From a virus (taxonomy: Duplodnaviria > Heunggongvirae > Uroviricota > Caudoviricetes), in IMG/VR virus record IMGVR_UViG_3300028586_000764: a DNA stretch of 64,000 nucleotides; one strand, written 5' to 3'. The notes below the pieces were generated by a model that was given only the letters and a program-made list of their open reading frames with translations, was not told the origin of the DNA and did not search any database. This document shows, piece by piece, positions 19,337 to 35,149 of this stretch (position 1 is the first letter of the stretch; the number at the start of each line of letters is the position of its first letter). The translations under genes and the position numbers were made by a program.

Positions 19337-21838
19337 ATGAAACTCGCAAATAGCCACGCTTCCGGAAATATCGTTGCCAGTGAGGGCATTCAGACCACGA
19401 GCGCGTTCGGCATCGCCCGCACGCCGCACATGTTCAACATCCTCTCCAGCGGCCTGTATTCCGATAAGATTGCGGCGGTACTACGCGAAATTAGCTGTAA
19501 CGCGATGGACGCCCACATCATGGGCGGTACTCCCGACAGACCTTTCCAGGTAAAGCTGCCAACGTCGCTCGACCGTTCCTTCCACGTGAAGGATTGGGGC
19601 CCAGGCCTGAACGACCAGGAGGTGCGCGAACTGTACACCACCTATGGCTGGTCGAGTAAGCAAAACAGTGACGACGTTACCGGTGCCTTCGGCCTGGGCT
19701 CGAAATCGCCGTTTGCGTACACGACGCAAAACGAAGAAGACAGCGATGGCTTCACCATCGTCTCGACAAAAGATGGCTTCAAGCGCATCTACACCTGCCA
19801 CATCGGTGAAGATGGTGCGCCGGCTATCAGCCGCCTGCACGAAGGCCCGGCCGACGCCGACTGGCCGCATGGCGTGATGGTCACCTTCCCGGTGCAGACG
19901 CGCGATATCGCTGAATTCCATCAGAAAGCCGTGGAAATCTATCAGTGGTTCCGCATCAAGCCGGAAATGCTCGGCCTGAATGGCCAGCTGTCGGCGCCCG
20001 AGTTCGACTTCCAGGGTTCGTTCTTCTCGATGAAACGCAAAGACAACGGTTCCGACCGTGGCGCTAGCGTCATCACCGGCAACGTGCGCTACCCCATCGA
20101 ACAGAGCCGCCTGGGCAGCCTGACGCCTATCGAAGAAGCGTTGCTGACGTCGAGCATCCACATGCACTTGCCAATCGGCCAAGTCATGATGACGCCGTCG
20201 CGTGAAACGCTGCAGTACACCGAGCAGACCAAGAGCAACCTGAAGCGACACCTCGCGGCCGCGGCCAACGAAGTTGCTGAACGCGTGCGTGAATACGTGA
20301 TGACGCCGGAGCCGACCCGATGGGCATGGTTCAAGAAGATTCACTCGTACCACGCATCCCTGCCTCACGGCATTCAGTATCGTATCGAGAAGTTCCTGGA
20401 AGCTGCCGGCGTGCCTGAAGAAGAAATCAAGATGGTGTCGCAAGCGGTGAAAGAGAACACCATCGAAGTACCCGGCTGGGTCGGCGATGGCATCGGCGGT
20501 CCGGCCGTGGAGTTCGAGTTCAACGAAGACGGCACGTACAAGCGTGACGCTCAGGGCATGCGTGTTGTGGTGCCGCGAGAACACAACTTCGGCGCCCGTG
20601 TCTATCTGTACGGATATGACAAGGCTCGTGATGCCGTCAGCCGCCGTGAGTTCATCAACGGCCGTGTGGCCAAAGGTGGCGACAAGCATGGCCGCGTGCA
20701 GCTGAGTTTCCTGTCGAGCATCCACGTGTACTACGCGGACGACAAACTGGCTGACCAGCGCGTGCGCGCGGCGGTGCGTGATGGCGAATGCAACTACGCA
20801 ATGTTGGTCACACCTTGTAAAGGCACGCCTCAAGCATATGCGGCAGAGTACGCCGCACGTCTCGTGGGCAAAAAAGGCCTGGACGGTGTACCCTCGTTCG
20901 GCGTCTCCACACTGGAGATTCCGAGTGCGGTCGAAGAAGCGCGTGAGCGTCGCCGTCGTTTCAAGGAACTGGGCCCACGCGCTACCTTTGCAGACCACGA
21001 AGTGCACTACCTGAGCCTGAACGGCAACATGGCCCGCACCACCCTGGGCGAACTGGAGGACAGCGACCTGTTCTACATGACGGCTACCAAGCTCAACGAA
21101 ATTCGTAAAGGCACTGTTCGCAACAAAGCCGACACGTACGACCACAGCTTCCCCGGCAGCTATCTCGGCGAAGTCGTGCGCAGTATCCGCATCATCGTAG
21201 AGGAACTGGGCTTGCCGGTCTCCGGAATGGTGTTGATGCCAACGGAAGGCGCTGCCCGCCGACTGAAACTGCCGGAACAGGGCTTCAAGCCCTTCCTGCC
21301 GTATTTCGTCGGGGAGCTGAAGGCCAACCGTACGCGCTGGGAAGCACTGACCGCGACGGTCGACCGTACACCACGTGTGGACATGTCGTCGCAGTACAGC
21401 GCCAAGCAGTATGGCTGGCTCGGTACGCTGGGTCATGAGATGCATCGCAACAGCGAGTTCTGGCAGCACTTCGAGGCCGAATTCTCGACCTCGCCGGTAA
21501 CGCATGCCGTTCGGGAATTCGTCAAGAACTCGGACAGCAGCAAGGAAAAGGAGGCAGTGCCGGCCAATCCTGTGTTGCAGGCACTGCAGCTGGTGGCCAC
21601 TCACCTGACCAATCACGGTCTGCCTGAAACGTCGGTGAAGCCGCTGTCGTACTACCAAGTGCGCAACGTGTTCGAGGAGATGGCACCTAGCTTCGAGATT
21701 ATCAACCAGGACGCCATGTGCAACTGGATGCGCGACAGTGACAACCATGAGCACGCCCTGTCGACGTTCCGCATGGTTCTGCAGCTGGACGGGCTGACGG
21801 ACGAAACGAGCGGTCGCACGCTTCGCCTCGTCGCATAA
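19337..21838 (+). CDS. rIIA: rIIA-like protein (N-terminal GHKL/Hsp90-like ATPase domain)
   Basis: FNILSSGLYSDKIAAVLREISCNAMDAH...KDWGPGLND...GAFGLGSKSPFAYTT aligns with T4 rIIA [28 protein letters not shown]...RDFGPGMSD...GGFGLGSKSPFSYTD. Confidence 0.9.
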   Translation: MKLANSHASGNIVASEGIQTTSAFGIARTPHMFNILSSGLYSDKIAAVLREISCNAMDAHIMGGTPDRPFQVKLPTSLDRSFHVKDWGPGLNDQEVRELYTTYGWSSKQNSDDVTGAFGLGSKSPFAYTTQNEEDSDGFTIVSTKDGFKRIYTCHIGEDGAPAISRLHEGPADADWPHGVMVTFPVQTRDIAEFHQKAVEIYQWFRIKPEMLGLNGQLSAPEFDFQGSFFSMKRKDNGSDRGASVITGNVRYPIEQSRLGSLTPIEEALLTSSIHMHLPIGQVMMTPSRETLQYTEQTKSNLKRHLAAAANEVAERVREYVMTPEPTRWAWFKKIHSYHASLPHGIQYRIEKFLEAAGVPEEEIKMVSQAVKENTIEVPGWVGDGIGGPAVEFEFNEDGTYKRDAQGMRVVVPREHNFGARVYLYGYDKARDAVSRREFINGRVAKGGDKHGRVQLSFLSSIHVYYADDKLADQRVRAAVRDGECNYAMLVTPCKGTPQAYAAEYAARLVGKKGLDGVPSFGVSTLEIPSAVEEARERRRRFKELGPRATFADHEVHYLSLNGNMARTTLGELEDSDLFYMTATKLNEIRKGTVRNKADTYDHSFPGSYLGEVVRSIRIIVEELGLPVSGMVLMPTEGAARRLKLPEQGFKPFLPYFVGELKANRTRWEALTATVDRTPRVDMSSQYSAKQYGWLGTLGHEMHRNSEFWQHFEAEFSTSPVTHAVREFVKNSDSSKEKEAVPANPVLQALQLVATHLTNHGLPETSVKPLSYYQVRNVFEEMAPSFEIINQDAMCNWMRDSDNHEHALSTFRMVLQLDGLTDETSGRTLRLVA

Positions 21839-21858
21839 CGAAACTACCGCAATTCTTC

Positions 21859-21887
21859 AGCCCCGGGGACTTCCTCGGGGCTTTTTT
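21859..21887 (+). terminator. rho-independent terminator
   Basis: The hairpin gccccg-gggacttcct-cggggc is followed by TTTTTT. Confidence 0.85.
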
Positions 21888-21952
21888 CGTCGCACGAGTC
21901 GTCAGCACCCTGCATTTTAGAAGGAATCCAGGCGCTGCATGTAAATCTCGTT

Positions 21953-21994
21953 GCTATAGGTTAAGCGGGACTGTACTGGCCCCGCTAGGCACAT
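21953..21994 (+). promoter_or_regulatory. variant upstream element (GCTATAG ... AGGCACAT) for rIIB
   Basis: The sequence is ttGCTATAGgttaagcgggactgtactggccccgctAGGCACATttcAAGGAGaagaatcaATG. Confidence 0.35.
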
Positions 21995-22011
21995 TTCAAG
22001 GAGAAGAATCA

Positions 22012-23151
22012 ATGAGCTATATCCGCACCCTCGGTGGTATTCACATGGTCATCGACGGCAAGCCCATCGCGGTTGCCCAAAGTGACAAGCATTTCCAATC
22101 GGTCCTCGAGGCGCTCAAGCGCAAAGCGACGGATGCGGAAATTCTCGACATTCTCGACTCCGAGAAACGTCGCATGGAAGCCGCGGTGCAGGTCGCGCCG
22201 GGTATCGAAATCAAAGGCGGACAGCTGTACTACCAGAACGAGCCGGTTGCCGGCGTGCTGGGCGAGCGCATGATGCAGATGGTCGATGAAGGCTTCGACC
22301 TGACGCCAATGGCAGCCTTCCTGCGAAACCTGATGGAAAACCCGTCCAAGCGCGTGGTCGACCACCTGTACGGTTTCCTGGAATACGGCAAGAACGCCAT
22401 CACCGAAGACGGCTGCTTCCTGGCTTACAAGGCGGTTACCGCCGAATACAAGGACATCTACACCGAAACGTTCGACAACTCGGTCGGTCAGGTCGTCAAG
22501 ATGCCACGCAACCGCGTCAACGAAGACCCTAACCAGACCTGCAGCGACGGCCTGCACGTGTGCAGCTTCGAGTACCTGGATTCGGCGTATGCCCGCAACA
22601 GCGGCCACGTGATGATTTGCAAAATCAATCCGGCCCACGTCGTTGCAGTCCCGACGGACTACAACAACACCAAGATGCGCGTGTGCGAATACGAAGTCAT
22701 GGGTGAGCACGTCGACTACTACCAAAGCAAGAACGACACGCTGTCGGCAACCTCGGTGGCCACCAGCACCAACTCGAACTTCCGCGTCGACGTCGACTAT
22801 GGCAGCGGCTATGGCCATGAAGACGACTTTGAACGCCTGTCGGAAGCTGCGGACCACATGGAATCGCTGCTGGACCGTGACGACGTCAAATCGGTGCGCG
22901 TGGTCAACATCAAGACGGACGCTGTGGTGGACGAGCAGGACAACCCTGACTACGACGATGGCGAAGGCAGCGACGACGACGAGTCGTACACCATCTTCGG
23001 CATCCAGTCGGGTGGCGGTCGCATCCAACTGGAAGATGGCTTCGACAGCGTCAACGATGCTGTCATGGAAGCACTGGAATACGAGAACGGCGTCTACGTC
23101 CGTATCGAAATCGTCGACCAGGACGACAAGGTCGTCAAGACCCTGAGCTGA
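22012..23151 (+). CDS. rIIB: rIIB-like protein
   Basis: IKGGQLYYQN...MENPSKRVVDHLYGFL...ITEDGCFLAYKAV...TFDNSVGQVVKMPRNRVNEDPNQTCSDGLHVCS...KMRVCEYEV aligns with T4 rIIB. The C-terminal half is acidic. Confidence 0.9.
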   Translation: MSYIRTLGGIHMVIDGKPIAVAQSDKHFQSVLEALKRKATDAEILDILDSEKRRMEAAVQVAPGIEIKGGQLYYQNEPVAGVLGERMMQMVDEGFDLTPMAAFLRNLMENPSKRVVDHLYGFLEYGKNAITEDGCFLAYKAVTAEYKDIYTETFDNSVGQVVKMPRNRVNEDPNQTCSDGLHVCSFEYLDSAYARNSGHVMICKINPAHVVAVPTDYNNTKMRVCEYEVMGEHVDYYQSKNDTLSATSVATSTNSNFRVDVDYGSGYGHEDDFERLSEAADHMESLLDRDDVKSVRVVNIKTDAVVDEQDNPDYDDGEGSDDDESYTIFGIQSGGGRIQLEDGFDSVNDAVMEALEYENGVYVRIEIVDQDDKVVKTLS

Positions 23152-23157
23152 TGGCTT

Positions 23158-23192
23158 GGCCGGCGACTGGAGGTATCTCCATGTCGCCGGCC
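23158..23192. repeat. perfect inverted repeat (10-bp arms) immediately after rIIB stop
   Basis: The repeat is GGCCGGCGAC-tggaggtatctccat-GTCGCCGGCC. The T-run lies 8 nt away, so it may be an operator or a weak terminator. Confidence 0.5.
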
Positions 23193-23209
23193 AGAACCTG
23201 ATTTTCCAA

Positions 23210-23240
23210 GGCTTCGTCTCCGGACGAAGCCTTTTTCTTT
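23210..23240 (+). terminator. rho-independent terminator
   Basis: The hairpin ggcttcgtc-tccg-gacgaagcc is followed by TTTTTCTTT. Confidence 0.85.
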
Positions 23241-23261
23241 GCCTGTGTTGAGTTCCCCATG

Positions 23262-23288
23262 AAAAAACGCGCCAGATGGCGCGTTTTC
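23262..23288 (-). terminator. rho-independent terminator for the minus-strand gene cluster
   Basis: The minus strand reads aacgcgcca-tct-ggcgcgtt followed by TTTTTT. Confidence 0.8.
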
Positions 23289-23314
23289 AGCTAATGGGCT
23301 AGCCGCCCTATCGT

Positions 23315-23602
23315 TCATAGACCGTAGTATCGACCTGCCGACGGCTCATGCGAATCTTTCGCACGCCACCATTGCCACCAGGCGGGAGGCGCCCACTTAG
23401 CTGCTTTAGCCGCCTCGTTGCAAAGACGGATAGCCTCCTCTTCGTTGGGTGCGAATGCGTGAATTACGTCCGGCCTGCTGAACGGGGTCCTTGTGAACAG
23501 GATGCAGGCGTCGTAACCTTTTCTATTTGGTGCTAGAGACAAGGCTAGAGGGCTCCACGAGCTTTTTCTGGGCAGGGCGTAACTTGTTGGCGATTTTGAC
23601 AA
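23315..23602 (-). CDS. hypothetical protein (95 aa)
   Basis: The ORF has a dedicated terminator. It overlaps the 3' end of the DUF4031 gene by about 80 nt and the start is uncertain. Confidence 0.4.
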   Translation of the reverse strand: MSKSPTSYALPRKSSWSPLALSLAPNRKGYDACILFTRTPFSRPDVIHAFAPNEEEAIRLCNEAAKAAKWAPPAWWQWWRAKDSHEPSAGRYYGL

Positions 23603-23822
23603 TGTCTCGGGGCCTCACCGCATGTGCCCCGGCTGCCAAAACTTTCTCTCGCTGCTCGTCCGTTACGTCGTAGTGAGGGTGTCGGGCACCGCGATGAAAC
23701 GACGACCTCGCAATGCCCTGCGCCTGGGCGAACGTGTGCAGCTCTTCAAGGCTGTCCGCGGTCATGTGGAAGCGAGGCGTACCCCTTAAGATGATTGCCG
23801 CGTCATCGACATATACCGCCAT
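23523..23822 (-). CDS. DUF4031 family protein
   Basis: The DUF4031-like pattern is MAVYVDDAAIILRGTPRFHMTADSLEELHTFAQAQGI...FHRGARHPHYDVT. There is an AAGGAG RBS 7 nt from the ATG at 23822. Confidence 0.7.
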   Translation of the reverse strand: MAVYVDDAAIILRGTPRFHMTADSLEELHTFAQAQGIARSSFHRGARHPHYDVTDEQREKVLAAGAHAVRPRDIVKIANKLRPAQKKLVEPSSLVSSTK

Positions 23823-23826
23823 ACTT

Positions 23827-24687
23827 TCACTCCTTTTCCAATAGCCTGCCACGGGGCACATCATACCGCTGCCAGAAGCCTCGGAAGATTTCTTGTTCTG
23901 CCGTGACGCGCTTCATCATCGGGCAAGCGAATCGAATAACCAGCGTATGCGACTTCGAGTCCGTCGACTGCCACAGGACTTTTGGCTGCGAACTTGGAAG
24001 GTCCACGAATTCCACACCTTCAATACGTTCGAGGTGGGCATCGGCTTTAACCTGCCAGCCGGACGTCGCGGCTTCAGCCGCATCGAGAGCAGCTTTCTCA
24101 GCTTTCTCGAAGTCTACGTCGTAAGGGACCACGATAGGCAGAAGGTCGACGATGTACTCGCCGGTGGCACTGGAATTACGCACCGGCTGATTGAGCACTG
24201 CACTATTGGGCATGGACAGAGTCTTGCCCGTCAGTTGGTGAGCAGTACCAGTCTCTGCCAGCGTAGTGGTAAAGACATCGATGTCGATGACTCGCCCCTC
24301 TTTCCCTGCGATTTCGATGAAGTCACCCACTCGGTAACTGCGCGAAGTCGTAATCATCACGTAGCCCAGGATGCACATCAAAAGCTCTTTGGACACAAGA
24401 AGGATGGCGCCACCAACTGCAGCCAGGGACAGCATCAGGCCTGCCAGCTTGGTGGCCCAAATAGCAATGACGATGAACACCATCGTGACCCAAACGATGT
24501 TCTTGGCGTGTACGAGCTTTTCACGAGTACGCGATGCGTCCTGGCCGTTACTCGTGCGCAGGAGGAATCGGCCCCAGAGGCGAGTAATCATCACGGCCAG
24601 GCCGATGGTGATAGCCGTGGCAACGATGCGGCCGAGTTCGGTCGCATAATAGTTCTGTAAGACTGCCAGGATGGATTTCAGAGTCAT
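23827..24687 (-). CDS. small-conductance mechanosensitive channel (MscS family)
   Basis: Three TM segments are followed by the MscS beta domain GDFIEIAGKEGRVIDIDVFTTTL...LSMPNSAVLNQPVRN. Confidence 0.85.
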   Translation of the reverse strand: MTLKSILAVLQNYYATELGRIVATAITIGLAVMITRLWGRFLLRTSNGQDASRTREKLVHAKNIVWVTMVFIVIAIWATKLAGLMLSLAAVGGAILLVSKELLMCILGYVMITTSRSYRVGDFIEIAGKEGRVIDIDVFTTTLAETGTAHQLTGKTLSMPNSAVLNQPVRNSSATGEYIVDLLPIVVPYDVDFEKAEKAALDAAEAATSGWQVKADAHLERIEGVEFVDLPSSQPKVLWQSTDSKSHTLVIRFACPMMKRVTAEQEIFRGFWQRYDVPRGRLLEKE

Positions 24688-24696
24688 GGATTGCGG

Positions 24697-25218
24697 TTAG
24701 AAGGTAGGAACAGTAAAGCCTTGAGCAGCAAAAAGCGCGCGGTCAGCTACGACAACGGCGGCAACGCGCGGACAAAGCTCGCGCCAGTGGCATGCGAAAT
24801 GCTCTTTGTGTCTGGGAAGGTCGGCGAAAGACCGGTGCACTTCGGCTTCGAGGAAGTGACGGTCATGCACAGCCCAATGTTCAACACAGATGTACTCGCC
24901 GACCACGGCCTCGTTATTGAGGCGCTTGAGACGTTTGTCCGGCGCCAGGCGCGTCATGCCAACCTTGAGAAAGTCCGGTGTCACCGGGTTGGCGACAACG
25001 TACAGATGGCCGTGATTTTTCTTCCAGAGGGCTGCCAGTGACGCGTGCGCAAAATCCGTCCATTCGTCGGCTAGAACGTGTTCTCGGATAGCACGGGCGA
25101 CGTCAGTTTTGCCGGCGCGGATGGCTCGAGCGAGCAATCGGCCATGGGCGAGCGTGTCCTGTGCTGTAAAGGCACTGAACAGGCGCGTAAGGGTTTGATT
25201 GGATACAGAGGGTTGCAT
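24697..25218 (-). CDS. T5orf172 (GIY-YIG-like) domain protein
   Basis: GHLYVVANPVTPDFLKVGMTRLAPDKRLKRLNNEAVVGEY...EAEVHRSFAD is T5orf172-like. The start at 25218 has a weak RBS. Confidence 0.65.
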   Translation of the reverse strand: MQPSVSNQTLTRLFSAFTAQDTLAHGRLLARAIRAGKTDVARAIREHVLADEWTDFAHASLAALWKKNHGHLYVVANPVTPDFLKVGMTRLAPDKRLKRLNNEAVVGEYICVEHWAVHDRHFLEAEVHRSFADLPRHKEHFACHWRELCPRVAAVVVADRALFAAQGFTVPTF

Positions 25219-25334
25219 CCAATTATGTAGCAAGTTGACTTTATCCCAAAGCACTGGCTAACCGATTGCTGCTGCGGACGAGTCGGCGTTGCCTAGACAA
25301 CGTTGAAGATACTTTAATGAGTATAAAGCGCCAC

Positions 25335-25362
25335 GCTATACCGGGAGGACCGCGGACTATAC
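25335..25362 (+). promoter_or_regulatory. recurrent upstream element (GCTATAC-N4-AGGACCGC, then CTATAC)
   Basis: The sequence is cacGCTATACcgggAGGACCGCggaCTATACgtcg, about 50 nt upstream of 25413. Confidence 0.4.
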
Positions 25363-25412
25363 GTCGTATGACCGTCTCGGCATATCACTATTCACACGAA
25401 TCAAGAGGCGCC

Positions 25413-26768
25413 ATGAATCAAGAACTGCAAGAGTTGCTGCGAACTCCCCGCGAGGACCTGGATATCGAGCTTAAACAGTGGATGGACCCGGAAGACAAAT
25501 CGGTTCAAGCAAAATTTGCAAAAGAGTTGTTGGCACTCAGGAATCATGGAGGGGGCTATCTGGTTGTAGGGTTCTTGGATGAGCACCCTCCTTCGGAGGA
25601 CCCTGCACGCCCTGAAAATTTGTCTGCGTTCAGTACGGACTACTTCAATAACATCATTAAAAAATATGCCGAGCCTCCATTTCACTGTAACTCCCGAGTA
25701 ATTGTCCACCCGGTAAGTGGCAAAGAGTACCCTATTGTCGTGGTCCCAGGCGGAGCAACCCATCCCGTTCGATGCAAGGCGGATTCTCCTGATATGGGAA
25801 AAAGTGCCAAAATTAACAGCTATTACATTCGTCGCCCGGGCCCGGAAAGCAATACTCCACAGTCGGGCGCTGAATGGGACGAACTGATTAAGCGGTGTAT
25901 GTTGGCACAAAAAGAATCCATGCTTTCTGCCATTGCAACGCTAATGGGGCTAAACCGTGGCAGTGTCTCGGCCTATGTCCCTGCTGAGCCAATTCATCCT
26001 CTTTCGGAACTTCGGAAGTTCCGAGACGAAGCAATTGCAGCACTGGAGACCTTACAGCAAACGAAATTGCCAGCAAACGACGCTGCCCGCTTTCCAAACG
26101 GTCGATATGTCCTGTCTGCTCGAATTGTCGGACAGCTACAGAACCTTACGCAAAAAGAAATGCTTGACCGACTCACACGGCTGCGCCGCTACACGGGTTG
26201 GTCTCCTCTGTACGTATTTTCGCGCCCCGAACTTGCCCCCTATCCTGTGGATGAAAGGCAGGTGGAGTGCTGGTTAGGTCAGGGAGAGGACAGGGACGTG
26301 GGCCACGCCGATTTTTGGCGAATGTCTACCGATGGCTTCGTGACGCTGATTAGGGGCCATCAGGAAGATGGCCATGAAGCGGCAACTACCGGCATCCACC
26401 CTGGAAAAGGACTGGAGCTCACATTGCCCGCATGGCGTATCGCAGAGTTTCTGCTTCGGGTACGAGAATACGGAGCAGCGGTCACCGAAGGAGACTTTAC
26501 CATTCAACTAATCGTACAGTGGGAAGGCCTTGAAGGTCGACAGCTGTTCAGTTATGGAAACCGGCGTTGGCTTCCTGAGGGCTTTGAGGCAAAAGTCCAA
26601 AACTACCAAAAGGAAGTGGAGTTAACGCCGGCGGAAATTGATGTGGCACTTCCGACAGTATTGAATACTCTGGTAACTCCGCTCCTACGCCACTTTTCAT
26701 TTTTTGAACCCCCAGCGGATTTCTACGAGGGGGAACTAGGAGCGCTACAGAATCGAGGCAGCTTGTAA
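25413..26768 (+). CDS. AlbA_2 (Schlafen-like putative DNA-binding) domain protein with about 300-aa C-terminal domain
   Basis: LDIELKQWMDPEDKSVQAKFAKELLALRNHGGGYLVVGF is AlbA_2-like. There is an AGAGG RBS. Confidence 0.7.
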   Translation: MNQELQELLRTPREDLDIELKQWMDPEDKSVQAKFAKELLALRNHGGGYLVVGFLDEHPPSEDPARPENLSAFSTDYFNNIIKKYAEPPFHCNSRVIVHPVSGKEYPIVVVPGGATHPVRCKADSPDMGKSAKINSYYIRRPGPESNTPQSGAEWDELIKRCMLAQKESMLSAIATLMGLNRGSVSAYVPAEPIHPLSELRKFRDEAIAALETLQQTKLPANDAARFPNGRYVLSARIVGQLQNLTQKEMLDRLTRLRRYTGWSPLYVFSRPELAPYPVDERQVECWLGQGEDRDVGHADFWRMSTDGFVTLIRGHQEDGHEAATTGIHPGKGLELTLPAWRIAEFLLRVREYGAAVTEGDFTIQLIVQWEGLEGRQLFSYGNRRWLPEGFEAKVQNYQKEVELTPAEIDVALPTVLNTLVTPLLRHFSFFEPPADFYEGELGALQNRGSL

Positions 26769-26941: not shown

Positions 26942-27193
26942 TCAGAGGTCCAGTGTCATGTTTCGAGCACGGGTGGCCTGGTCATGGCGGAGCATTAGCT
27001 GCCGTTCGCCGTCGCAAAGGAGACGCTTGAGCTGACGAAGCTTGAACAGGTAAAGCTCGACTGGTTGGCCGTCGACGGTGAGTTGGACGGTAAAGTCCTT
27101 CACCTTTTCGAGCGCCGTTGTGTCAGGAACGCGTTCTTCGATGTAAAGCAGTTTGCCGCTGGCTTCGAGACTGCCTAGTTTTACGATTTTCAT
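26942..27193 (-). CDS. hypothetical small protein (83 aa)
   Basis: The ORF is contiguous with the 27190 gene (4-nt overlap) and the RBS is weak. Confidence 0.5.
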   Translation of the reverse strand: MKIVKLGSLEASGKLLYIEERVPDTTALEKVKDFTVQLTVDGQPVELYLFKLRQLKRLLCDGERQLMLRHDQATRARNMTLDL

Positions 27194-27834
27194 CGGATTT
27201 CTCGCACTACGCGTGGACCGACCTGACGGTCTGTGTAGTCGACCAGTCGAACCACTTTGATGTCGGCACGCTTGAGCAACGTCAGCGCGGTCGTTTTTGC
27301 TTCTTTCATCGTTGGCAGCCAGGTGAACAGCCGCTCGCCGGCTTCCGATGGAAGCGCGTCGGTAGCGTTGTCGGTGGCATATGCATGCACCTCAAAACCG
27401 CCGCGCGGCGCCTTAGCGCGTAGCACCACGATGCCAAATTCGTCGATGACCTGCGAGCTACCATACTCGCAGTCAGGTTCGAGAACGCGTTCTGCCTGCT
27501 CTTTTGCGTCGCCGAACGGCAGCCGCGAGATTTCCTTGACGGGGTCACGTGCTTCGAGGCCTGCGAATAGCTCGACGCGATAGCGACCCGAGGCTTCGAG
27601 AGGATTCGGTGGCGCGTCCGGCGTCGACTCCATCCGCTCGAAAGCAACGTTACTTGCCTGGGCCAGTGACAGTGAGACCACCATAGCCTGGCTGGGCAGC
27701 GCCTGATGAATCAAGTCGTGTGCTGTCACCAGACCGTCTTGCTGATTCGCTGCGTCGACTTCGATTTCGATGCGAACGATTGCCGGTACCTCGAAGGTAG
27801 CCTTATATTTGTTGGTCGTGTTGTCAGTTGTCAT
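27190..27834 (-). CDS. hypothetical protein (214 aa)
   Basis: AGGACACC lies 2-6 nt before the ATG and acts as the RBS. The upstream element is at 27839-27872. Confidence 0.65.
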   Translation of the reverse strand: MTTDNTTNKYKATFEVPAIVRIEIEVDAANQQDGLVTAHDLIHQALPSQAMVVSLSLAQASNVAFERMESTPDAPPNPLEASGRYRVELFAGLEARDPVKEISRLPFGDAKEQAERVLEPDCEYGSSQVIDEFGIVVLRAKAPRGGFEVHAYATDNATDALPSEAGERLFTWLPTMKEAKTTALTLLKRADIKVVRLVDYTDRQVGPRVVREIR

Positions 27835-27872: not shown

Positions 27873-27955
27873 CACGCGCTTTCTTAGTCTTTCACGTTCA
27901 AAAATCTTTGGCACGCGTTCCCGTTTTAGCCACTAACTTATCCAGAATTTAGATG

Positions 27956-28000
27956 CAATACTTTCTAAAATGATGCGAATGTAATATACTTTTTACATCA
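27956..28000 (+). promoter_or_regulatory. AT-rich promoter-like element with 23-nt block shared with 9591-9613
   Basis: The sequence is gcAATACTTTctaaaatgatgcgAATGTAATATACTTTTTACATCA. Compare AATGTGTTATACTTTTTAAATCA at 9591-9613. Confidence 0.5.
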
Positions 28001-28093
28001 AATAGTCTCCTGGAAGTCCCGTGTGCTCGACAGCCACGGATTTCTTGCATATGCAGCTTGGCTTTCAAGCTTCCCTAACCTACTTGAACGAAC

Positions 28094-28507
28094 ATGCCCC
28101 AACGATACGCCCTGGTTTGCTGCGGCAAGCAGAAGTCAACACACACGGCGAGCGCGAAAGAGCTCTATCAGTCGACCCTCTTTCGGAAAACACGTTCTTA
28201 TGCGGAACGCCAGTACGACGGCTGGTTTGTGCTCTCAGCCCTGCATCATGTGCTCCACCCTGACCAGGTCGTGATGCCTTACGAGTTCAAGCTGAACCGT
28301 CGTGATGCGAGCACGTGGGCCGATATCGTCGCGGAACAACTGGCTGCGCTAGTGCCTCCTGGATGCGAGCTGGACTATTTCGGTGGGGCCACCTATGGCC
28401 TGGTCGTGTCGAAATTGGAAGCAAGGGGCTATCTGGTGGGACAGCCCTTAGCCGGCCTACAGGTTGGCCAACGACTGCACTGGTTGACGGCGCGCGAATC
28501 CAAATAA
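28094..28507 (+). CDS. hypothetical protein (137 aa)
   Basis: Motifs ALVCCGKQK and WFVLSALHHVLHPDQVVMPYEF are present. There is no clear RBS. Confidence 0.5.
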   Translation: MPQRYALVCCGKQKSTHTASAKELYQSTLFRKTRSYAERQYDGWFVLSALHHVLHPDQVVMPYEFKLNRRDASTWADIVAEQLAALVPPGCELDYFGGATYGLVVSKLEARGYLVGQPLAGLQVGQRLHWLTARESK

Positions 28508-28574
28508 ACGGGCAAAAGAAGGCGCCCCTGAACCTGTCGGTACAAGGGCGCTAAATCATGCGGGAAGCGTCGGC

Positions 28575-29318
28575 TTAGTTAAGCGTCGCGCCGGTCGGAA
28601 CCAGGTAGCGCGTTGCAAAGGCGATGCGGATTTCAGTGTAAGAGCCACGGAAGTCCTCGTCGAACGCGGCACTACGTACTTTAGCCAGGCGCTGGATGAT
28701 GCGGTCTTGCAGGGGCGTCAGCACGGCAGTGGACGCCGCGCGGGCCACCGGGTAGACGTGCGCATCGTAGTAACGGCAACGTTCTTCATTGTCGAAAGGC
28801 TTCCACGCCGGGGCACCCTTCTCCGCTTTTTCATAAGCAGCCGAGTAGGCCGCTTCCGATTTCTTGCGGAAGCGCGAGTAGTGCGAGGGCACACTTCGTT
28901 CCAGGCGACGGTCCATCTGAGCAGCCTTGAACATCTTGCTTGCCAGGTTTTCTTCGATGGCCTTCAGCAGCGCAGGCATCTCGGGAGAATCTGCCGGCAG
29001 CGTGAAGTTACCAATGAAGTTGGTCACGCGATGGAACTGCAGCGCGAAGTAGACGTCACCGGGGGCGGTATTACTGCCCTTGATGAGCGCGCCGCGGAAT
29101 GGCGTGTGGTCGTCCACGGTAGCACCTCGCTGAGGGTCCAGGGCCATGTGGCGCAGGAGCGCGATGGTCAGGCGAGCCAGCTGGTCCGAGTCACGCTCCA
29201 TGGCCTCGAGCCGCGCGCGGTAATCGAGACTACGGAAGTGCCCTTCTGCTTCACCAGCCAGATGAGGCCGGTCGGAGAAGTGCGGATGCAATGCTTTCAG
29301 GTCGTACAGTGCGTTCAT
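28575..29318 (-). CDS. hypothetical protein (about 248 aa)
   Basis: The start is at MNALYDLK with a GAGG RBS 6 nt upstream. There is a promoter-like element upstream. Confidence 0.7.
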   Translation of the reverse strand: MNALYDLKALHPHFSDRPHLAGEAEGHFRSLDYRARLEAMERDSDQLARLTIALLRHMALDPQRGATVDDHTPFRGALIKGSNTAPGDVYFALQFHRVTNFIGNFTLPADSPEMPALLKAIEENLASKMFKAAQMDRRLERSVPSHYSRFRKKSEAAYSAAYEKAEKGAPAWKPFDNEERCRYYDAHVYPVARAASTAVLTPLQDRIIQRLAKVRSAAFDEDFRGSYTEIRIAFATRYLVPTGATLN

Positions 29319-29339
29319 GAATTTCCTCGTAAATAAGTA

Positions 29340-29380
29340 GTTGTCCTGCGTGCGTATAGCCAACCTGCGAGGGTAGTCAA
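29340..29380 (-). promoter_or_regulatory. sigma70-like promoter carrying the recurrent element (TTGACT-N16-TATACG ... AGGACAAC)
   Basis: The coding strand reads TTGACTaccctcgcaggttgGCTATACgcacgcAGGACAACtacttatttacGAGGaaattcATG. Confidence 0.55.
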
Positions 29381-29394
29381 AAAACACGTTCTAA

Positions 29395-29427
29395 AAAAGA
29401 AAAGGCCCCTTCAACCGAAGGGGCCTG
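29395..29427 (-). terminator. rho-independent terminator
   Basis: The minus strand reads aggcccctt-cggttg-aaggggcct followed by TTTCTTTTTT. Confidence 0.85.
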
Positions 29428-29443
29428 TACGACGTGCGAAGAC

Positions 29444-29908
29444 TTAGCGCATCCCAGTGCCCGGCACCCACGGCAAGGTATTGGCCTCAAAGAAGCCCAT
29501 GCTGCAGGTCTTGATGCTGCCACCCTGAGTGGTGAATTCCACCATCTCATGCGGCCCTTGCGTGTGCGTCGTGCCCGATGGCTTGACGAGTTCACGCTCC
29601 AGCGACTCCGGATGCGTCAGCCAGAACCAGCGTTCTGGCTGCTTCCAGTGGGGCGTGCCGCGCCCGCCAGCTTTCTTGACCACGACAACAGTCGGTGTGC
29701 TGGCAGGCCTGCCGGCCGGCAGGCGCGGTGGGGCAGCCTCTCGTGGACGGGGCTCCCCTTGGCGAGGAGCTGCCTGCAACAAAGCGGCGCGTGGTGCAGA
29801 ATGTGCCGGTTTGGCCGGTGGCGCTGTTCGGGCCGGCAACGCCGGGCGGGTGGCGATGGGCGCGCTGGCTGGGGAGGCGGCTTGACGACGATTACGGGTG
29901 AGGCTCAT
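29444..29908 (-). CDS. hypothetical protein with Pro/Ala-rich low-complexity N-terminus (154 aa)
   Basis: The ORF is in an operon with the dUTPase-like gene and has a terminator downstream. The RBS is weak. Confidence 0.5.
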   Translation of the reverse strand: MSLTRNRRQAASPASAPIATRPALPARTAPPAKPAHSAPRAALLQAAPRQGEPRPREAAPPRLPAGRPASTPTVVVVKKAGGRGTPHWKQPERWFWLTHPESLERELVKPSGTTHTQGPHEMVEFTTQGGSIKTCSMGFFEANTLPWVPGTGMR

Positions 29909-29921
29909 CTAGAAAAGGCTT

Positions 29922-30770
29922 TCAGGATTCGAGAATCGGTAGGGTTCGCAGGGCAGACGGCTCGACGATGCGATGCACGATGCCAATGCCGTTTTGCAGC
30001 GCTGGGGCACCCTCATGCTCGGTCATTTTGCCGATAAAAGGGCCTGTGTTCGTTTCAAGACAATGCCATCCGCCCGCGGCACAGGCGTCCGTGTAGCGAG
30101 ACAGGAGCCCCTGGCTGATGGCGTCCTCCAGCTCTTGGCCCGTGACGCCCAGCTGCTGTGCCATCAGCTCTTCCAGTGCCACGTTGTCTTCGACGCCATT
30201 CCAGTCTTTCACGTAGCGGCCGGTTTTGTAGCCGTAGCGCTGACGGAATACGTTGAGAAGATTCTTACCCAGATATTGGGCGTACAGCTGCTCGAACGAC
30301 AGGTCCACTTGCGCGCACAGCACAAAGAAAGCGTCGGTGTCGAAAAGGCCCTGCGCAGCAGCACCAACGAGTGCTTCGACTCCGCGGTTGAACGCTTCGT
30401 CGGATTTTTCGACGGTACCCGCCTGCTCTCGTGCTTTTTCAACACGGCGCATGATGGCCTCGTTGAGGACCCAGTCCGCAGCGTCGGCGCTGCCAAAGCG
30501 CACCATCCACAGCGACAGCGCGAAGTGCCAGATGTCTACCAGCTCAAGCTGGCACTGGCCGAGGTCTGGCTGGGTGTTTTTCTTCCACCATTTCCAGCGG
30601 TTGTAGTGCTCCAGAAGCTCCACCCCTTCAACCAGGATGGCGCGGCTCCAGGAGTAGCCGGCCTGCGCCCAGTCCGGGTTGACCACGCGATTCATGCGGT
30701 CCTGCAGCGAGAGCATGTGCGAGAGCATACGGCGGTCAGCAGTAGCGTTGATATCGTATCGAGTTGTCAT
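29922..30770 (-). CDS. dimeric dUTPase-like (all-alpha NTP pyrophosphatase) protein with C-terminal extension
   Basis: SLQDRMNRVVNPDWAQAGYSWSRAILVEGVELLEHYNRWKWWKK matches the dimeric dUTPase/dCTPase family signature. Confidence 0.7.
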   Translation of the reverse strand: MTTRYDINATADRRMLSHMLSLQDRMNRVVNPDWAQAGYSWSRAILVEGVELLEHYNRWKWWKKNTQPDLGQCQLELVDIWHFALSLWMVRFGSADAADWVLNEAIMRRVEKAREQAGTVEKSDEAFNRGVEALVGAAAQGLFDTDAFFVLCAQVDLSFEQLYAQYLGKNLLNVFRQRYGYKTGRYVKDWNGVEDNVALEELMAQQLGVTGQELEDAISQGLLSRYTDACAAGGWHCLETNTGPFIGKMTEHEGAPALQNGIGIVHRIVEPSALRTLPILES

Positions 30771-30814
30771 GATTTGAGGTCTTTCGTCAGTTGAAAATCG
30801 GTCGGCGCCGGCGC

Positions 30815-31582
30815 TTATGCTTCGCTGTCAATAGGCCAGAGCAACTGCGCCTTGCTGCGGGGGCTACGCAGGAGCGCCAGAAACCAGCACCAGGCGTCTG
30901 GGTTGTCCCGGACAAATCGCTGCCAGGCTTGGGCTTGCACGCGCGTGAAGCGCCGACGGGTTTCGCGTGTTCGCATGCGCGCGGCATGGTGGAACGCGTG
31001 GGTAAGTTCATGCAGGACGATGACAGCCAGGTGCCGTCCAATCAGCTCCTCGTGGAGCCGAACGCAGCGACGACGAATGAGGTAGTACCCCCAGACGCCC
31101 TCTTGGTCACCCTTCTCGCCTGCCATGGCGGCCAGGTCGACCAAATGCGGCCCAACCCATACTTCCTGCGGCGCTCGCGCGCGCCAACGGCTTTGGCCAG
31201 TGGCATAGGCGGCGTAGTTGTGGGCCCCGCGACGCCGGGAAGTCAACTGGCTATTGAGCCATTTCCAGGCGGCGGGGTTGCGGCTGGCGAATTCGAGTAC
31301 GCCAGCGGCGAAGCTGTGCGTGAAATGCTCCTCGGTAGAAGCATCGTCCAGCCCGTGCGTGTAGTGGATGGCCTCAATCAGGCGTACAACAAATGCCTCA
31401 AGGAGCGCCCTCCCTGTTAAATGCTCGGCAATACGGATACAGCCGGCGTTGTAGTCGTTCACTGAATTCTCGTTCCCACGCCCTAGCACTGCCTTGGGCA
31501 GACGTTCTACTCGTAACTGGTACGGGCCCAGTTCGAGCAGAAAAAGCAAACTTGCCCCGGAGGGCACGTGAGAGTTGGGCAT
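30815..31582 (-). CDS. putative zinc metallopeptidase (HExxH motif)
   Basis: The motif is LAVIVLHELTHAFHHA. The family is unclear (SprT/ImmA/WLM-like) and the start is uncertain. Confidence 0.55.
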   Translation of the reverse strand: MPNSHVPSGASLLFLLELGPYQLRVERLPKAVLGRGNENSVNDYNAGCIRIAEHLTGRALLEAFVVRLIEAIHYTHGLDDASTEEHFTHSFAAGVLEFASRNPAAWKWLNSQLTSRRRGAHNYAAYATGQSRWRARAPQEVWVGPHLVDLAAMAGEKGDQEGVWGYYLIRRRCVRLHEELIGRHLAVIVLHELTHAFHHAARMRTRETRRRFTRVQAQAWQRFVRDNPDAWCWFLALLRSPRSKAQLLWPIDSEA

Positions 31583-31719
31583 CGCAGTGAGGAACGAGAG
31601 AACGTCGAACGGTGCCTGCGAAGAGCTGCAGGAGTCTTCTTGTTTAGCACCTGGACCTTAAATGTCGGAGTCTCCTAAAAAGATATTTTCAAATGTTCGT
31701 TTGCGTATGGAGTCCGCTA

Positions 31720-31739
31720 GCTATAGGTGAGAGGACATG
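31720..31739 (+). promoter_or_regulatory. recurrent upstream element (GCTATAG-N5-AGGACATG) for DNA polymerase
   Basis: The sequence is ctaGCTATAGgtgagAGGACATGgg, about 55 nt upstream of 31793. Confidence 0.45.
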
Positions 31740-31792
31740 GGACGTGGATATACGTCCTTTCAATTTTTAGCAACGAGAGGAGATTTACCTTT

Positions 31793-34700
31793 ATGCAACT
31801 CGGATTCGATTTGGTCTATACCGACCCGAACACGCACGAAATCGTGCCTTGGGCAATGCCTGACACGAAGCTGTTTGCCCGTATCGAAGCGGCACCATGG
31901 AAAGTGGTCGACGTGGAGACTACCGGCCTGAATCCTGCAAGCAAGGAACAGAAGTTCTCCGGCAAGGAACTGCGTCGGGGTATCAACCCGGTGCTGCGCC
32001 TACGCATTCTGTCGGTGCTGTACCCGATGATTGGTACGGCCAAAGGCTACGACGTCGTCGCTTTCGACTTCGACCAGATGACCCAGAAGGAACGTGAACA
32101 AGCGGCTACGGCTTCGATGAACAATGTCGTCATCGCACACAACGCCGGCTTCGACGCGTACTGGATTCGCCAGTTCACGAAAGTGACGCCGAAGCTGTTG
32201 CTGGACTCGATGCTGATGGCCCGCGTGCTGCGCCCTGAACACCCGCTGGTCATGGCGCGCATCTGCAACGACGAGAACGAGGACCCGGACATCAAGGCGG
32301 AAGCCGAAGCGATGTTCATGCAGGGCCGCTCGGGCTGGTCGCTTGCCGACCTGTCGGTAGGCGTTCTGCGTCGTATTCTGCCTAAGGGCCTGCAAGGTCC
32401 TAAAAACTGGGCAGAGCCGTTCCTGACGCAAGCGAACTACAACTACGCCACCGATGACGTCCGGGTGCTGCACGACCTGCTGCTGGACCTGTTCGAAATC
32501 GACAGTTGTGACCAGCTGCTGGAGCGCTACTATGAGCTGCGCGCAGAGAATCGCGTGCTGCGCATCATTGAGCCCCAGGTGCTGGACATCGTGATGATGC
32601 GGGAACACGGCATGCCGTGGGACCAAGCTGAAGCTGCGAAGTACATCGAAGTCCAGTGGGACAAGGTGCGTCAGTTTGCAAAGCGCATGGTGGAACTCGA
32701 ACCGGCCCTGGCCAAGTTCGAGCGCGACCTGGGCGATGCCGGCAAAGGCATTACGGCCAACCTCAAAACCGCTATCGGCGAAGCATTTGCCGCCCGCGGC
32801 CTCGAGCTGGAGATGACGGAGAAATCCAACACCTTCAAGATTGGCGAGAAAGACTTGCGTCGTGCTCGCGCACAGGTCAGCGACGATGCCCGGGAACTGT
32901 TTGACACCTGGGTCGGCCTGAACCGTGCAAAGAAAGCTGGCGGTATGGCCATGGAAGTGACGGGCTACGCGGTACGCTCTCCTCAACGGGATAGCCGTCT
33001 GCATCCGAACACGGGCCACGGTCCGGTGACGGGCCGTCTGTCGTCATCCGAGCCGAACTGCTTCACCGGCGACACCGAAATCCTCACGCTTCAAGGCTGG
33101 GTGCGTTTCGACGAGCTGGACGATGATGCCAAAGTCGCGCAGTACGTCGACGGCCGTATCGAGTTCGTGAGCACGCTCGACGTGATTCGCGAAGACTGGG
33201 AAGGCACCCTGGTGCACAACCAGACCTCGAGCACTGACCTGCTGACGACGCCGATGCACCGCTGCCTGCTGATTGACCCCGTGTCGAAAAAGCAACGCGT
33301 GGTGATGGCCGAGGACTATCCGGAAGGCTATCGCCAGCTGCACGGCGGTATGTACGCGGGCGGCGAAGGCTTGGGCGTGAACGAAGCAGAACTGCGCTTC
33401 CTCGTCATGGGCCACGCTGCCGGCAGCTGGGAAGAAGACGGTTCGTTCACGCTGCGCTTCTCGCGTGCGCGTAAAGCAGAACGTTTCCTGAAGCTGTTTG
33501 CCAACCTGGACCCGATGGCCAACGTGCTGTCGACCGATGCACGCAGCTTCCGTTTCGGACCGACGCACGAACTCACCGAGCTGGCTGAGCTGTACCTGGG
33601 ACACGACTACGAATTCGGTTTCGGCGAATGGGTATTCTCCCTGAGCCGTGAGCAAATCGAGGTGTTCTTCGACGAGCTGACCCGTACGGATGCGACCCAC
33701 GCGAAGCCGACCAAGGCCTATCGTGCCCAGTATGTGGCTACTCGCAAGAGCGACGCAGACATGGTTCAAGCCCTGTATGCGGTGTCGGGTGCAATGGCCC
33801 GCGTGCAGTCGAATCTGGACAAGAAGACCGGAGAACAAACCTGGACCGTCAAGGCGGTGCAACGCGACTACACGTTCACCACTAACCGCACGCAAGAGCT
33901 CAAGCCTTACAAGGGCAAGGTTTACTGCGTGACGGTGCCGAGCAGCTTTATCGTGGTTCGCCACGGTGACAGCCTGCCGATGGTGACGGGTCAGTGCCAG
34001 CAGTTCCCGCGTGACCAGGGCTTCCGTAACTGTGTGATGGCGCCGGAAGGCTACAAAATCATGGCATCGGACTATTCCGCACTGGACATGCGTGTGGGTG
34101 CTGCACTGGCAATTCGTGCGCAGCGACATATCTTCGAGGCGTACATGGGCGACCGGGCAGTACATCCGGACGCAGCACGTGTGATTGCCCGGGTGTATGA
34201 AGGCAAGATTTCGATGGAAGCCGCTCGCGCCGAGGAAGCTCGTGCCGTTAAGGCCTTCGGTGACTGGAAAGCTCGTCGTGAAGACGTCGCTGACGCAATG
34301 GACGCTCGCAAGCGTTACTGGGAAGAGTACCGCAAACGTGCTCGCACCCAGCTGCTCGCCGGCTTCCAGCGCTGCCTGAAGGAAGTTCGACTGAAGGCCG
34401 ACTCCGAGGGCACCTCGGAGTGGGGTTCGCTGCGCGATGCGTTCAACATCGAAGGCATGGACATCCACACCTGGACCGCGCTGGGCATGGTGGGTGAAGA
34501 CCCGAAAGCGCTGTTCTCGGGCCTGTCCGGAGAAGACGTCGCCAAGTCGCTCAAAGAGTGGAAGAAGAAGCTCGGCGACAAGCGTCAAACCGGTAAGGTC
34601 GGTAACTTGTCGCTGCTGTATGCGATGAAGACCCAGGGCCTGATGGATGCTGCAGCTAAAAACTACAACATCCACTGGACTTACGAGGAAGCCGACAAGG

Positions 34701-35149
34701 TGCGCAACGATTGGCTGGCCGCTTACGTCGAAATCGACCTGTGGCACAAGTGGACCGAGCTCAACCCGGCAGAACAAGTGTATGTGCCAGACTTCGACCG
34801 CGGCGGCAAGTTCGCCAAGAAAGAGGTTTACGCATCGTACACGCTGGGTGACCGCCTCATCTACGCCTTCGGCCTGAACGCTGCTCTGTCGTACGAGGAC
34901 CAATCGACCGGCGCTGACATTCTGGGCCTGGTGATGCAAACGCTGCGGGAGTTCCATCCGGACATCTTCGATAGCGTCATCAACCAGGTGCACGATGAAT
35001 TGGTGTTCATGCTGCCTGACGAGAAAGTCGAGGAATGGACCGAGATTGTTCAGCGGGTCATGACTGAGTGCGCTGAGCACTTCCTGATGCAGTTCGGCGT
35101 GCGTGGTGAATGCTCTCCGGCTACGGGTCAGGTCTGGCTCAAGGACTGA
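31793..35149 (+). CDS. family-A DNA polymerase with N-terminal 3'-5' exonuclease domain, interrupted by an intein
   Basis: The exonuclease motifs are VVDVETTG, VIAHNAGFDAYW and YATDDVRVLHDL. The polymerase motifs are RLSSSEPN|intein|CQQFPRD, DYSALDMR (A), KRQTGKVGNLSLLYAM (B) and VHDELVF (C). There is a GAGGAG RBS. Confidence 0.95.
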   Translation: MQLGFDLVYTDPNTHEIVPWAMPDTKLFARIEAAPWKVVDVETTGLNPASKEQKFSGKELRRGINPVLRLRILSVLYPMIGTAKGYDVVAFDFDQMTQKEREQAATASMNNVVIAHNAGFDAYWIRQFTKVTPKLLLDSMLMARVLRPEHPLVMARICNDENEDPDIKAEAEAMFMQGRSGWSLADLSVGVLRRILPKGLQGPKNWAEPFLTQANYNYATDDVRVLHDLLLDLFEIDSCDQLLERYYELRAENRVLRIIEPQVLDIVMMREHGMPWDQAEAAKYIEVQWDKVRQFAKRMVELEPALAKFERDLGDAGKGITANLKTAIGEAFAARGLELEMTEKSNTFKIGEKDLRRARAQVSDDARELFDTWVGLNRAKKAGGMAMEVTGYAVRSPQRDSRLHPNTGHGPVTGRLSSSEPNCFTGDTEILTLQGWVRFDELDDDAKVAQYVDGRIEFVSTLDVIREDWEGTLVHNQTSSTDLLTTPMHRCLLIDPVSKKQRVVMAEDYPEGYRQLHGGMYAGGEGLGVNEAELRFLVMGHAAGSWEEDGSFTLRFSRARKAERFLKLFANLDPMANVLSTDARSFRFGPTHELTELAELYLGHDYEFGFGEWVFSLSREQIEVFFDELTRTDATHAKPTKAYRAQYVATRKSDADMVQALYAVSGAMARVQSNLDKKTGEQTWTVKAVQRDYTFTTNRTQELKPYKGKVYCVTVPSSFIVVRHGDSLPMVTGQCQQFPRDQGFRNCVMAPEGYKIMASDYSALDMRVGAALAIRAQRHIFEAYMGDRAVHPDAARVIARVYEGKISMEAARAEEARAVKAFGDWKARREDVADAMDARKRYWEEYRKRARTQLLAGFQRCLKEVRLKADSEGTSEWGSLRDAFNIEGMDIHTWTALGMVGEDPKALFSGLSGEDVAKSLKEWKKKLGDKRQTGKVGNLSLLYAMKTQGLMDAAAKNYNIHWTYEEADKVRNDWLAAYVEIDLWHKWTELNPAEQVYVPDFDRGGKFAKKEVYASYTLGDRLIYAFGLNAALSYEDQSTGADILGLVMQTLREFHPDIFDSVINQVHDELVFMLPDEKVEEWTEIVQRVMTECAEHFLMQFGVRGECSPATGQVWLKD
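33059..33994 (+). other. intein (312 aa) inserted in polymerase motif between SSSEPN and CQQFPRD
   Basis: The intein starts CFTGDTEILT and ends ...VVRHGDSLPMVTGQ before +1 Cys. Degenerate LAGLIDADG-like segments are present (LVMGHAAGSWEEDGSF). It is in-frame with both exteins. Confidence 0.75.

Follow-up and report, generated by a model that had tools for sequence, protein, structure and literature searches.

T4-type rIIA and rIIB genes in a backbone block of a probable megaplasmid-like replicon distantly related to the tRNA-carrying megaplasmids of Variovorax

The stretch of DNA considered here (64,000 nucleotides, referred to throughout as the window) is catalogued in IMG/VR as a virus of the Caudoviricetes (record IMGVR_UViG_3300028586_000764), and the part of it from 19,337 to 35,149 begins with homologues of the T4 genes rIIA and rIIB and ends with a family-A DNA polymerase (PolA). 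Genes were called with a self-trained model and essentially every open reading frame (ORF) was scanned against Pfam and PHROGs; the features identified are listed in Table 1. The window has approximately 57% GC and carries genes on both strands. The genes named in the initial annotation (rIIA, rIIB, PolA, primase, two DEDDh exonucleases, Nudix hydrolase, dUTPase-like protein, SbcD-like protein, DUF4031 and T5orf172) are all present where it placed them, and the phage-type character that it ascribed to this replication and auxiliary repertoire is borne out by the Pfam and PHROG matches.

rIIA and rIIB are textbook phage genes. The two proteins align with those of T4 (NC_000866) over their conserved cores, as the initial annotation had proposed: T4 rIIA has 32% sequence identity to its homologue over 312 amino acids (E=4e-40), confined to the N-terminal GHKL-type domain, and T4 rIIB has 39% identity over 226 amino acids (E=2e-51). 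The motifs of a GHKL/Bergerat-type ATPase can be read intact in the rIIA sequence (N box EISCNAMDAH, G1 DWGPGL, G2 GAFGLGSKS). The C-terminal 500 or so amino acids do not align to T4 and show conservation only among members of the plasmid family described below, in which full-length rIIA homologues on Variovorax megaplasmids have 39.9% identity with 97% coverage and the rIIB orthologue of the megaplasmid pWDL1-1 has 51% identity. The N-terminal third of rIIA also matches proteins of ~117-kb plasmids of Methylobacterium, Sinorhizobium, Shinella and Pararhizobium and of 150-280-kb mycobacterial plasmids (24-33% identity), and these alignments hint at a wider occurrence of rIIA-like GHKL proteins among plasmids.

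As in T4, rIIA and rIIB are directly adjacent on the same strand, here with a spacer of 173 nucleotides, but T4 lacks the MscS and ExbB/ExbD neighbours that accompany the pair in the window and its relatives. In each of the relatives compared, a gene for an MscS-like mechanosensitive channel adjoins rIIB, and a five-gene cluster with ExbD and ExbB (58-61% identical to those of pWDL1-1, 77-79% to those of an 846-kb metagenomic contig) is found next to the two rII genes. Possibly this cluster encodes a Ton/Tol-like motor dedicated to the plasmid. The rII pair of the window also differs from that of T4 in its setting, which is a plasmid-type replicon without T4-like virion or packaging genes.

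Exact look-ups of window proteins (rIIA, rIIB, the PEP-swivel protein, the TerD-vWA protein and flotillin) place all of them on one contig of 810,191 bp, and window proteins are also found on short-read contigs of sample SRR8466249. The genome is thus far larger than the window, as had been predicted. TraC of pWDL1-1 finds a protein with 69% identity whose longest contig again measures 810,191 bp, and the context of this TraC (ena:ERZ27250812:k141_543633) is KfrA, helicase, OmpA, SLT, TraL, TraE, TraB, TraV, TraC, TraF, TraH and TraG, a complete F-type transfer operon with its tra genes in the same order as in pWDL1-1 and, as there, with a KfrA-like gene ahead of the helicase and tra genes. 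The same F-type tra genes are present in SRR8466249, the sample of the window's short contigs. The lists of matches to rIIA and to TraC share at least 10 further contig sizes, making at least 11 contigs with both homologues; therefore, the association holds across the megaplasmid family.

The rIIA homologues of cultured Variovorax (40% identity) are encoded by four plasmids in PLSDB with sizes of 801-839 kb, namely pWDL1-1 (NZ_LR594690.1), pSRS16-1 (NZ_LR594667.1), pPBL-E5-1 (NZ_LR594672.1) and pPBL-H6-1 (NZ_LR594660.1), where the rIIA product is named simply an "ATP-binding protein" and that of rIIB a "hypothetical protein". Öztürk et al. (2020) named these plasmids tRNA-carrying megaplasmids and described them as 99% identical across independently isolated, axenic strains, with 62.5% GC compared to 67% for the chromosome. 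In their description a single array holds approximately 44 of the plasmids' tRNA genes, repB-parAB is accompanied by F-type tra genes and by CRISPR-Cas of type I-E, no relaxase was found, and essential genes are lacking (PMC7313664). Annotated on pWDL1-1 (814 features, 816 kb) are the initiator RepB, ParAB in two pairs, a type IV pilus and a complete type IV secretion system (T4SS) of F type with its coupling protein. Its very large set of replication and repair genes comprises those of PolA, primase, LigA, LigD/Ku, Topo IV, RecA, RecJ, RadA, Rad52, SSB, RNase HI and HII, ExoVII and ImuAB/DnaE2, accompanied by ThyA, DHFR and SecA/SecB, by the translation-related SmpB, Pth, two aminoacyl-tRNA ligases and a release-factor-like protein. 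Defence systems are also present, as are islands for catabolism and for metal resistance.

By local tblastn, 24 proteins of the window are collinear with positions 698-741 kb of pWDL1-1 at 32-63% identity (primase 62%, ExbD 61%, ExbB 58%, N-extein of PolA 63%, rIIB 51%, MscS 47%, rIIA 40%), and the common order around rIIA is RNase H-like protein, ExbD/ExbB, DEDDh exonuclease, rIIA, rIIB, MscS, PolA and second exonuclease. The left flank of the window (RecD-like, YbaB, 5'-3' exonuclease) is syntenic with pWDL1-1 too, and the collinear block exceeds 60 kb, from RecD-like/YbaB/FEN through to the glyoxalase-family and vWA proteins. On the 846-kb metagenomic contig, 20 window proteins are collinear at 40-80% identity, and full-length rIIA homologues are found with 62-68% identity on contigs of 0.85-1.46 Mb and with 44% identity on a 667-kb compost contig. 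The Variovorax megaplasmids also resemble the window's replicon in a size of about 0.8 Mb, in the order of the F-type tra genes, and in a recurrent upstream element (GCTATAC-AGGACAA) that is described below. The window differs from them in its protein sequences (32-63% identity) and in its GC content (57% versus 62.5%), on account of which its host is probably of a genus other than Variovorax. Beyond the block shared with Variovorax, it has a putative PolA intein, a group II intron, the flotillin/YqiJ/cation-diffusion-facilitator genes, an adenosine deaminase, the SbcD-like protein and the TerD pair, whereas the LigD of Variovorax is absent at the syntenic site.

Virion genes were sought in the 64-kb window and in pWDL1-1, and the negative results that follow cover these two rather than the remaining ~700 kb of the 810-kb contig. 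In agreement with the initial annotation, which had noted the absence of capsid, tail, portal and terminase genes, the Pfam and PHROG scans of the window found no capsid, portal, terminase, tail, baseplate or lysis family; the sole "structural" PHROG matches ("baseplate wedge", "virion structural") stem from the LamG domain encoded at 1-1266. None of the 814 features of pWDL1-1 bears the name of a capsid, portal, terminase, tail or baseplate product. When eleven proteins of T4 packaging and of its virion (gp14-gp24) were compared by tblastn with pWDL1-1, the window and other loci, no match was better than E=0.17, in a search that returned T4 rIIA and rIIB at E=1e-34 to 1e-53 (1e-34 to 1e-46 for pWDL1-1 itself). 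Comparison with 50,697 phage records by megablast (19337-35149) found no DNA similarity, exact 42-mers gave no match in IMG/VR or in GTDB genomes, and in a concatenated multi-protein tblastn no single phage shared more than one or two window proteins. The best phage match for rIIA is to the uncultured 595-kb phage LR756511.1, at 36% identity over the N-terminal 342 amino acids only.

Because of the contig link to the tra genes, the collinearity with plasmids of cultured strains and the lack of detectable virion genes, the window is very probably the conserved backbone block of a plasmid-type replicon of about 0.8 Mb, a distant relative of the Variovorax tRNA-carrying megaplasmids and hence a new member of a family known since 2020. 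Several observations weigh against this interpretation. The window is linked to the tra operon by the same contig size (810,191 bp), sources and sample, not by a continuous sequence that was read. RepB of pWDL1-1 has no homologue on the 810-kb contig that was detectable at the sensitivity of that search. No relaxase was found on the Variovorax plasmids, which PLSDB types as non-mobilizable. In the 1,463,929-bp relative Ga0308158_10000004, positions 1-12139 have the same order as pWDL1-1 (Topo IV-B, SLT, metallophosphoesterase, SbcC-like, DUF2726, RecJ, helicase) and the helicase is 83% identical, marking a close relative, but the ~8-kb parA-parB-repB segment is absent between RecJ and helicase. 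Because parAB-repB is missing at this syntenic site, the rep/par genes are variable in the family, part of which may consist of chromids or integrated copies. Finally, "hypothetical protein" accounts for well over half of the pWDL1-1 products (from a reading of the tables, uncounted), among which very divergent virion genes could hide.

The last of these points is the opening for a giant temperate phage-plasmid, maintained as a plasmid and with a virion too divergent for sequence methods. Such an element would account for the mixture of phage-type genes (rII, PolA, tRNA array, aminoacyl-tRNA ligases, SmpB, release-factor-like protein) with plasmid genes, for the S49 peptidase on pWDL1-1, on which most genes are hypothetical, and for the resemblance of the LamG protein at 1-1266 to virion-protein domains. 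It is nevertheless improbable, as neither the PGAP product names nor the T4 queries revealed a capsid, portal, terminase, sheath, tube or baseplate in 816 kb, Pfam and PHROGs likewise revealed none in the window, and in BF3, a real phage of that size, the capsid and portal are easily detected. The F-type T4SS offers an alternative route of transfer, and known phage-plasmids are far smaller.

Equally hard to sustain is a chromosomal island, chromid or integrated copy in place of a dispensable plasmid. Close relatives of rIIA on contigs of 1.23 and 1.46 Mb, the absence of parAB-repB from the latter's syntenic site and the failure to detect a RepB homologue on the 810-kb contig are consistent with it. 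In the window and its fetched flanks (~76 kb), however, there is no rRNA, tRNA, ribosomal-protein or core metabolic gene, no integrase and no att-like boundary. The prophage or island bounded by att repeats and an integrase, which had been offered as the alternative to a virulent phage, was not seen; a plasmid was not among the options considered. The 810-kb size matches that of the free Variovorax plasmids, the helicase/tra operon is preceded by a KfrA-like gene as in pWDL1-1, and the Variovorax plasmids have no essential genes (PMC7313664).

The large virulent phage of the initial annotation, of which the window would be the early/replication region and the virion genes would lie elsewhere in 810 kb, is the least probable origin, because the T4-type rIIA and rIIB, the many PHROG matches (polymerase, exonuclease, nucleoside triphosphate pyrophosphatase) and ORFans, the putative intein and the HNH-bearing group II intron (both common in large phages), the 595-kb phage match for rIIA and the existence of a real phage exceeding 800 kb (BF3, 841 kb) are outweighed by the F-type T4SS operon on the same contig, by collinear plasmids stably carried in pure cultures (impossible for a virulent phage), by an annotated relative without virion genes and negative T4 packaging and virion queries, and by the sharing of at most one or two proteins with any single phage and the lack of DNA similarity to the 50,697 phage records. 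Huge or jumbo phages (LR756511.1, BF3) are like the window's family in the range of their genome sizes, in having rII genes, ORFans and inteins or introns, and in encoding a polymerase and nucleases of their own, and the Variovorax relatives resemble them further in tRNA arrays and translation-related genes. BF3, which is similar in size and GC content, was considered as a possible member of the plasmid family and rejected: its supplementary table reports structural matches to T4-like capsid and portal folds and none to conjugation genes, the reverse of the window's family.

As a plasmid-type replicon, the element is predicted to move or maintain itself by plasmid machinery, with the F-type type IV secretion operon on its own contig and repB-parAB as in cultured relatives. 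The window provides a phage-type set for replication, repair and nucleotide sanitation (PolA, primase, RNase H-like protein, two DEDDh exonucleases, SbcD-like protein, Nudix hydrolase, dUTPase-like protein). Such a self-encoded set of polymerase, primase and nucleases would lessen the dependence of a giant plasmid on host replication and repair. By analogy with T4, rIIA and rIIB would shield membrane energetics from Rex-type abortive infection, which could be triggered by phage-like replication intermediates during entry of the plasmid into a lysogen or its replication there; a membrane role of rII fits the conserved MscS and ExbB/ExbD/TonB-like neighbours. The upstream element would be a promoter or operator read with a plasmid-specific factor. 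A bolder proposal, advanced tentatively and more doubtful than the assignment to a plasmid, is that rII, MscS and the ExbB/ExbD/TonB-like genes form a module for membrane protection against abortive infection, and that the family as a whole is an evolutionary hybrid, in which a replication, repair and translation gene set of jumbo-phage type, its virion lost or never present, is propagated by means of partition and F-type conjugation. If this is true, rII, PolA and tRNA arrays are unreliable as phage markers in metagenomes, and rII function is open to study in a non-lytic, culturable setting, Variovorax with pWDL1-1.

No mention of rII genes on plasmids was found in the literature searched or in the description of the family (PMC7313664). 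In the giant plasmid-type replicons described here, found both in culturable bacteria and in many metagenome contigs, rIIA and rIIB belong to the conserved backbone. A combination of rIIA, rIIB and PolA without structural genes is no proof of a phage. Megaplasmids of this kind can be taken for huge phages by sequence-based virus callers and by people alike, a risk that bears on claims of record phage genome sizes. Variovorax strains with plasmids of the pWDL1-1 type constitute a non-lytic genetic system for rII function.

The recurrent upstream element has the core GCTATAC(G)-N4-6-(C)AGGACAA and is present in 13 copies in the window, each oriented with a gene and most of them 34-51 nucleotides before the start codon (a few up to ~80). 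In a strict form (GCTATA-N6-9-GGWCM) it occurs 9 times compared to 0.14 expected, a number reached in none of 100 shuffles. It precedes rIIA, rIIB, PolA, the exonuclease, the Nudix hydrolase and several genes of no known function, and back-to-back pairs on opposite strands at 38053-38100 and 50964-51034 serve divergent genes. The element is kept in the 846-kb relative and in the Variovorax backbone (17 copies in the 816 kb of pWDL1-1) and is absent from the tra operons and accessory islands. The initial annotation was thus correct that the element recurs, but the single transcriptional regime that it proposed is limited to a backbone regulon: because of its absence from the tra operons and accessory islands, the distribution of the motif indicates that it marks this regulon and not the whole replicon. 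A reading of the element as sigma-70 -35 and -10 boxes was rejected, as the Variovorax AGGACAAC box is too near the ribosome-binding site and TTGnnn occurs at -35 spacing in 2 of the 13 window copies, with no conserved -35; the element may function as a promoter, as an operator or within a leader. Recurrent GGC[GC]TTTTTCTTT tails look like terminators.

PolA, which probably starts with MQLG at 31793, is interrupted within a conserved motif by an insert that corresponds to an exact gap in the alignment with the 809-amino-acid intein-free PolA of Variovorax, to which the N-terminal and C-terminal exteins are 63% and 69% identical. The insert has Cys1 and the +1 Cys of an intein, but ends in Gly-Gln instead of His-Asn. 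It matches the intein N-terminal model TIGR01445 weakly (E=0.0011, below the cut-off) and also matches intein-bearing PHROGs; a PDB sequence search with it returned no match. PolA of the 846-kb relative is long as well (1115 amino acids), which suggests that it likewise has an insert. The group II intron is located in the leader between the upstream element at 50983 and the start of the glyoxalase-family gene at 48323, with a candidate 5' splice site (GTGCG) approximately 40 nucleotides past the element. The short-read assembly breaks exactly at this intron; the intron-encoded reverse transcriptase (RT), used as a probe for multiple copies, detected no site besides the window's own.

Table 1. 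Features of the 64,000-nucleotide window
Feature	Position	Strand	Evidence or remark
Secreted protein, LamG and Ig-like HYDIN/ASH ("choice-of-anchor D") repeats	1-1266	-	Pfam/PHROG scan
483-aa protein, C-terminal PEP-utilizers "swivelling" phosphohistidine domain	1322-2773	+	phrog_11532 E=2.7e-51
Flotillin YqiK, NfeD-like YqiJ, cation-diffusion-facilitator transporter	2918-6704	-	
Stand-alone primase (Zn-ribbon, DUF7146, Toprim_3)	6805-7926	-	62% identity to pWDL1-1 toprim protein
RNase H-like (RVT_3) protein	8783-9568	+	PF13456; syntenic in relatives
Nudix hydrolase	13381-13833	-	PF00293
ExbD / 135 aa / ExbB / 243 aa proline-rich (TonB-like by eye) / 201 aa cluster	14775-17330	-	PF02472, PF01618
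DEDDh (RNase_T) 3'-5' exonuclease, divergent from rIIA	17471-18436	-	PF00929; upstream element at 18476
rIIA homologue, 833 aa	19337-21838	+	phrog_612 E=1e-103; upstream element at 19286
rIIB homologue, 379 aa	22012-23151	+	phrog_609 E=6e-70; PF26926 Phage_T4_rIIB
DUF4031 protein	23523-23822	-	PF13223 on identical Logan gene call
MscS-like mechanosensitive channel	23827-24687	-	PF00924 E=3.8e-10; 47% to pWDL1-1, 80% to 846-kb relative
T5orf172/MUG113 (GIY-YIG-like) domain protein	24697-25218	-	PF10544, PF13455; PADLOC PDC-S57
Schlafen/AlbA_2 (SLFN) domain protein	25413-26768	+	PF04326; phrog_38563; upstream element at 25335
Two small ORFs (83 and 214 aa)	26942-27834	-	Syntenic in all relatives examined (tblastn)
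DUF6884 protein	28094-28507	+	PF21818 E=2e-36; PADLOC PDC-M57A
Upstream element, example copy	29342-29360	-	
Dimeric dUTPase-like (dUTPase_2) / all-alpha NTP pyrophosphohydrolase	29922-30770	-	PF08761 E=2.7e-25; phrog_173
Family-A DNA polymerase with 3'-5' exonuclease domain, interrupted by a putative intein	31793-35149	+	PF00476, PF01612
312-aa putative intein in PolA, SSSEPN / CFTGDTEIL … VTGQ / CQQFP	33059-33994	+	Exact gap versus intein-free orthologue
SbcD-like metallophosphoesterase/exonuclease	41252-42832	-	phrog_284 E=2.6e-45
Glyoxalase-family gene	47637-48323	-	
Group II intron, ends approximate	48385-50937	-	Rfam RF02012 113.5 bits, RF00029 58.3 bits (D1-D4, D5/6)
Intron-encoded RT/maturase/HNH ORF	48464-50224	-	PF13655 (RVT_N), PF00078 (RVT_1), PF08388 (GIIM), PF01844 (HNH)
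Secreted protein, Ig-like HYDIN/ASH ("choice-of-anchor D") repeats	52271-54106	+	
TerD, then TerD + vWA (TerF-like), tellurite-resistance/stress-type	54414-56394	+	
Second DEDDh (RNase_T) exonuclease	57297-58139	-	PF00929 E=1e-28; 50% identity to pWDL1-1
Other upstream element starts	8448, 19286, 21953, 25335, 31720, 45343, 51017	+	
Other upstream element starts	13872, 18476, 38070, 39052, 50983	-	

The ORF called for the first DEDDh exonuclease reaches 19093 or 19180 and is probably over-extended: since homology to relatives begins at amino acid ~236-252 of the 569-amino-acid call and an upstream element is located at 18476, a start at 18436 is favoured. The interval 18.5-19.2 kb may contain a separate small gene on the plus strand, as in relatives (186-209 amino acids). 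No tRNA gene and no integrase gene were found in the window, and PADLOC gave no match for rIIA, rIIB, the TerD proteins or flotillin. Beyond the left edge of the window are genes for a RecD2-like helicase, YqeY, RarA, YbaB, a 5'-3' exonuclease and an acetyltransferase. The YqiK/YqiJ/cation-diffusion-facilitator genes are membrane cargo without counterpart in the syntenic Variovorax block. Homologues of the PEP-swivel protein (phrog_11532) occur in phiCbK-like Caulobacter phages, and pWDL1-1 has giant versions (more than 3,000 amino acids) of the secreted proteins with HYDIN/ASH repeats and LamG domains.

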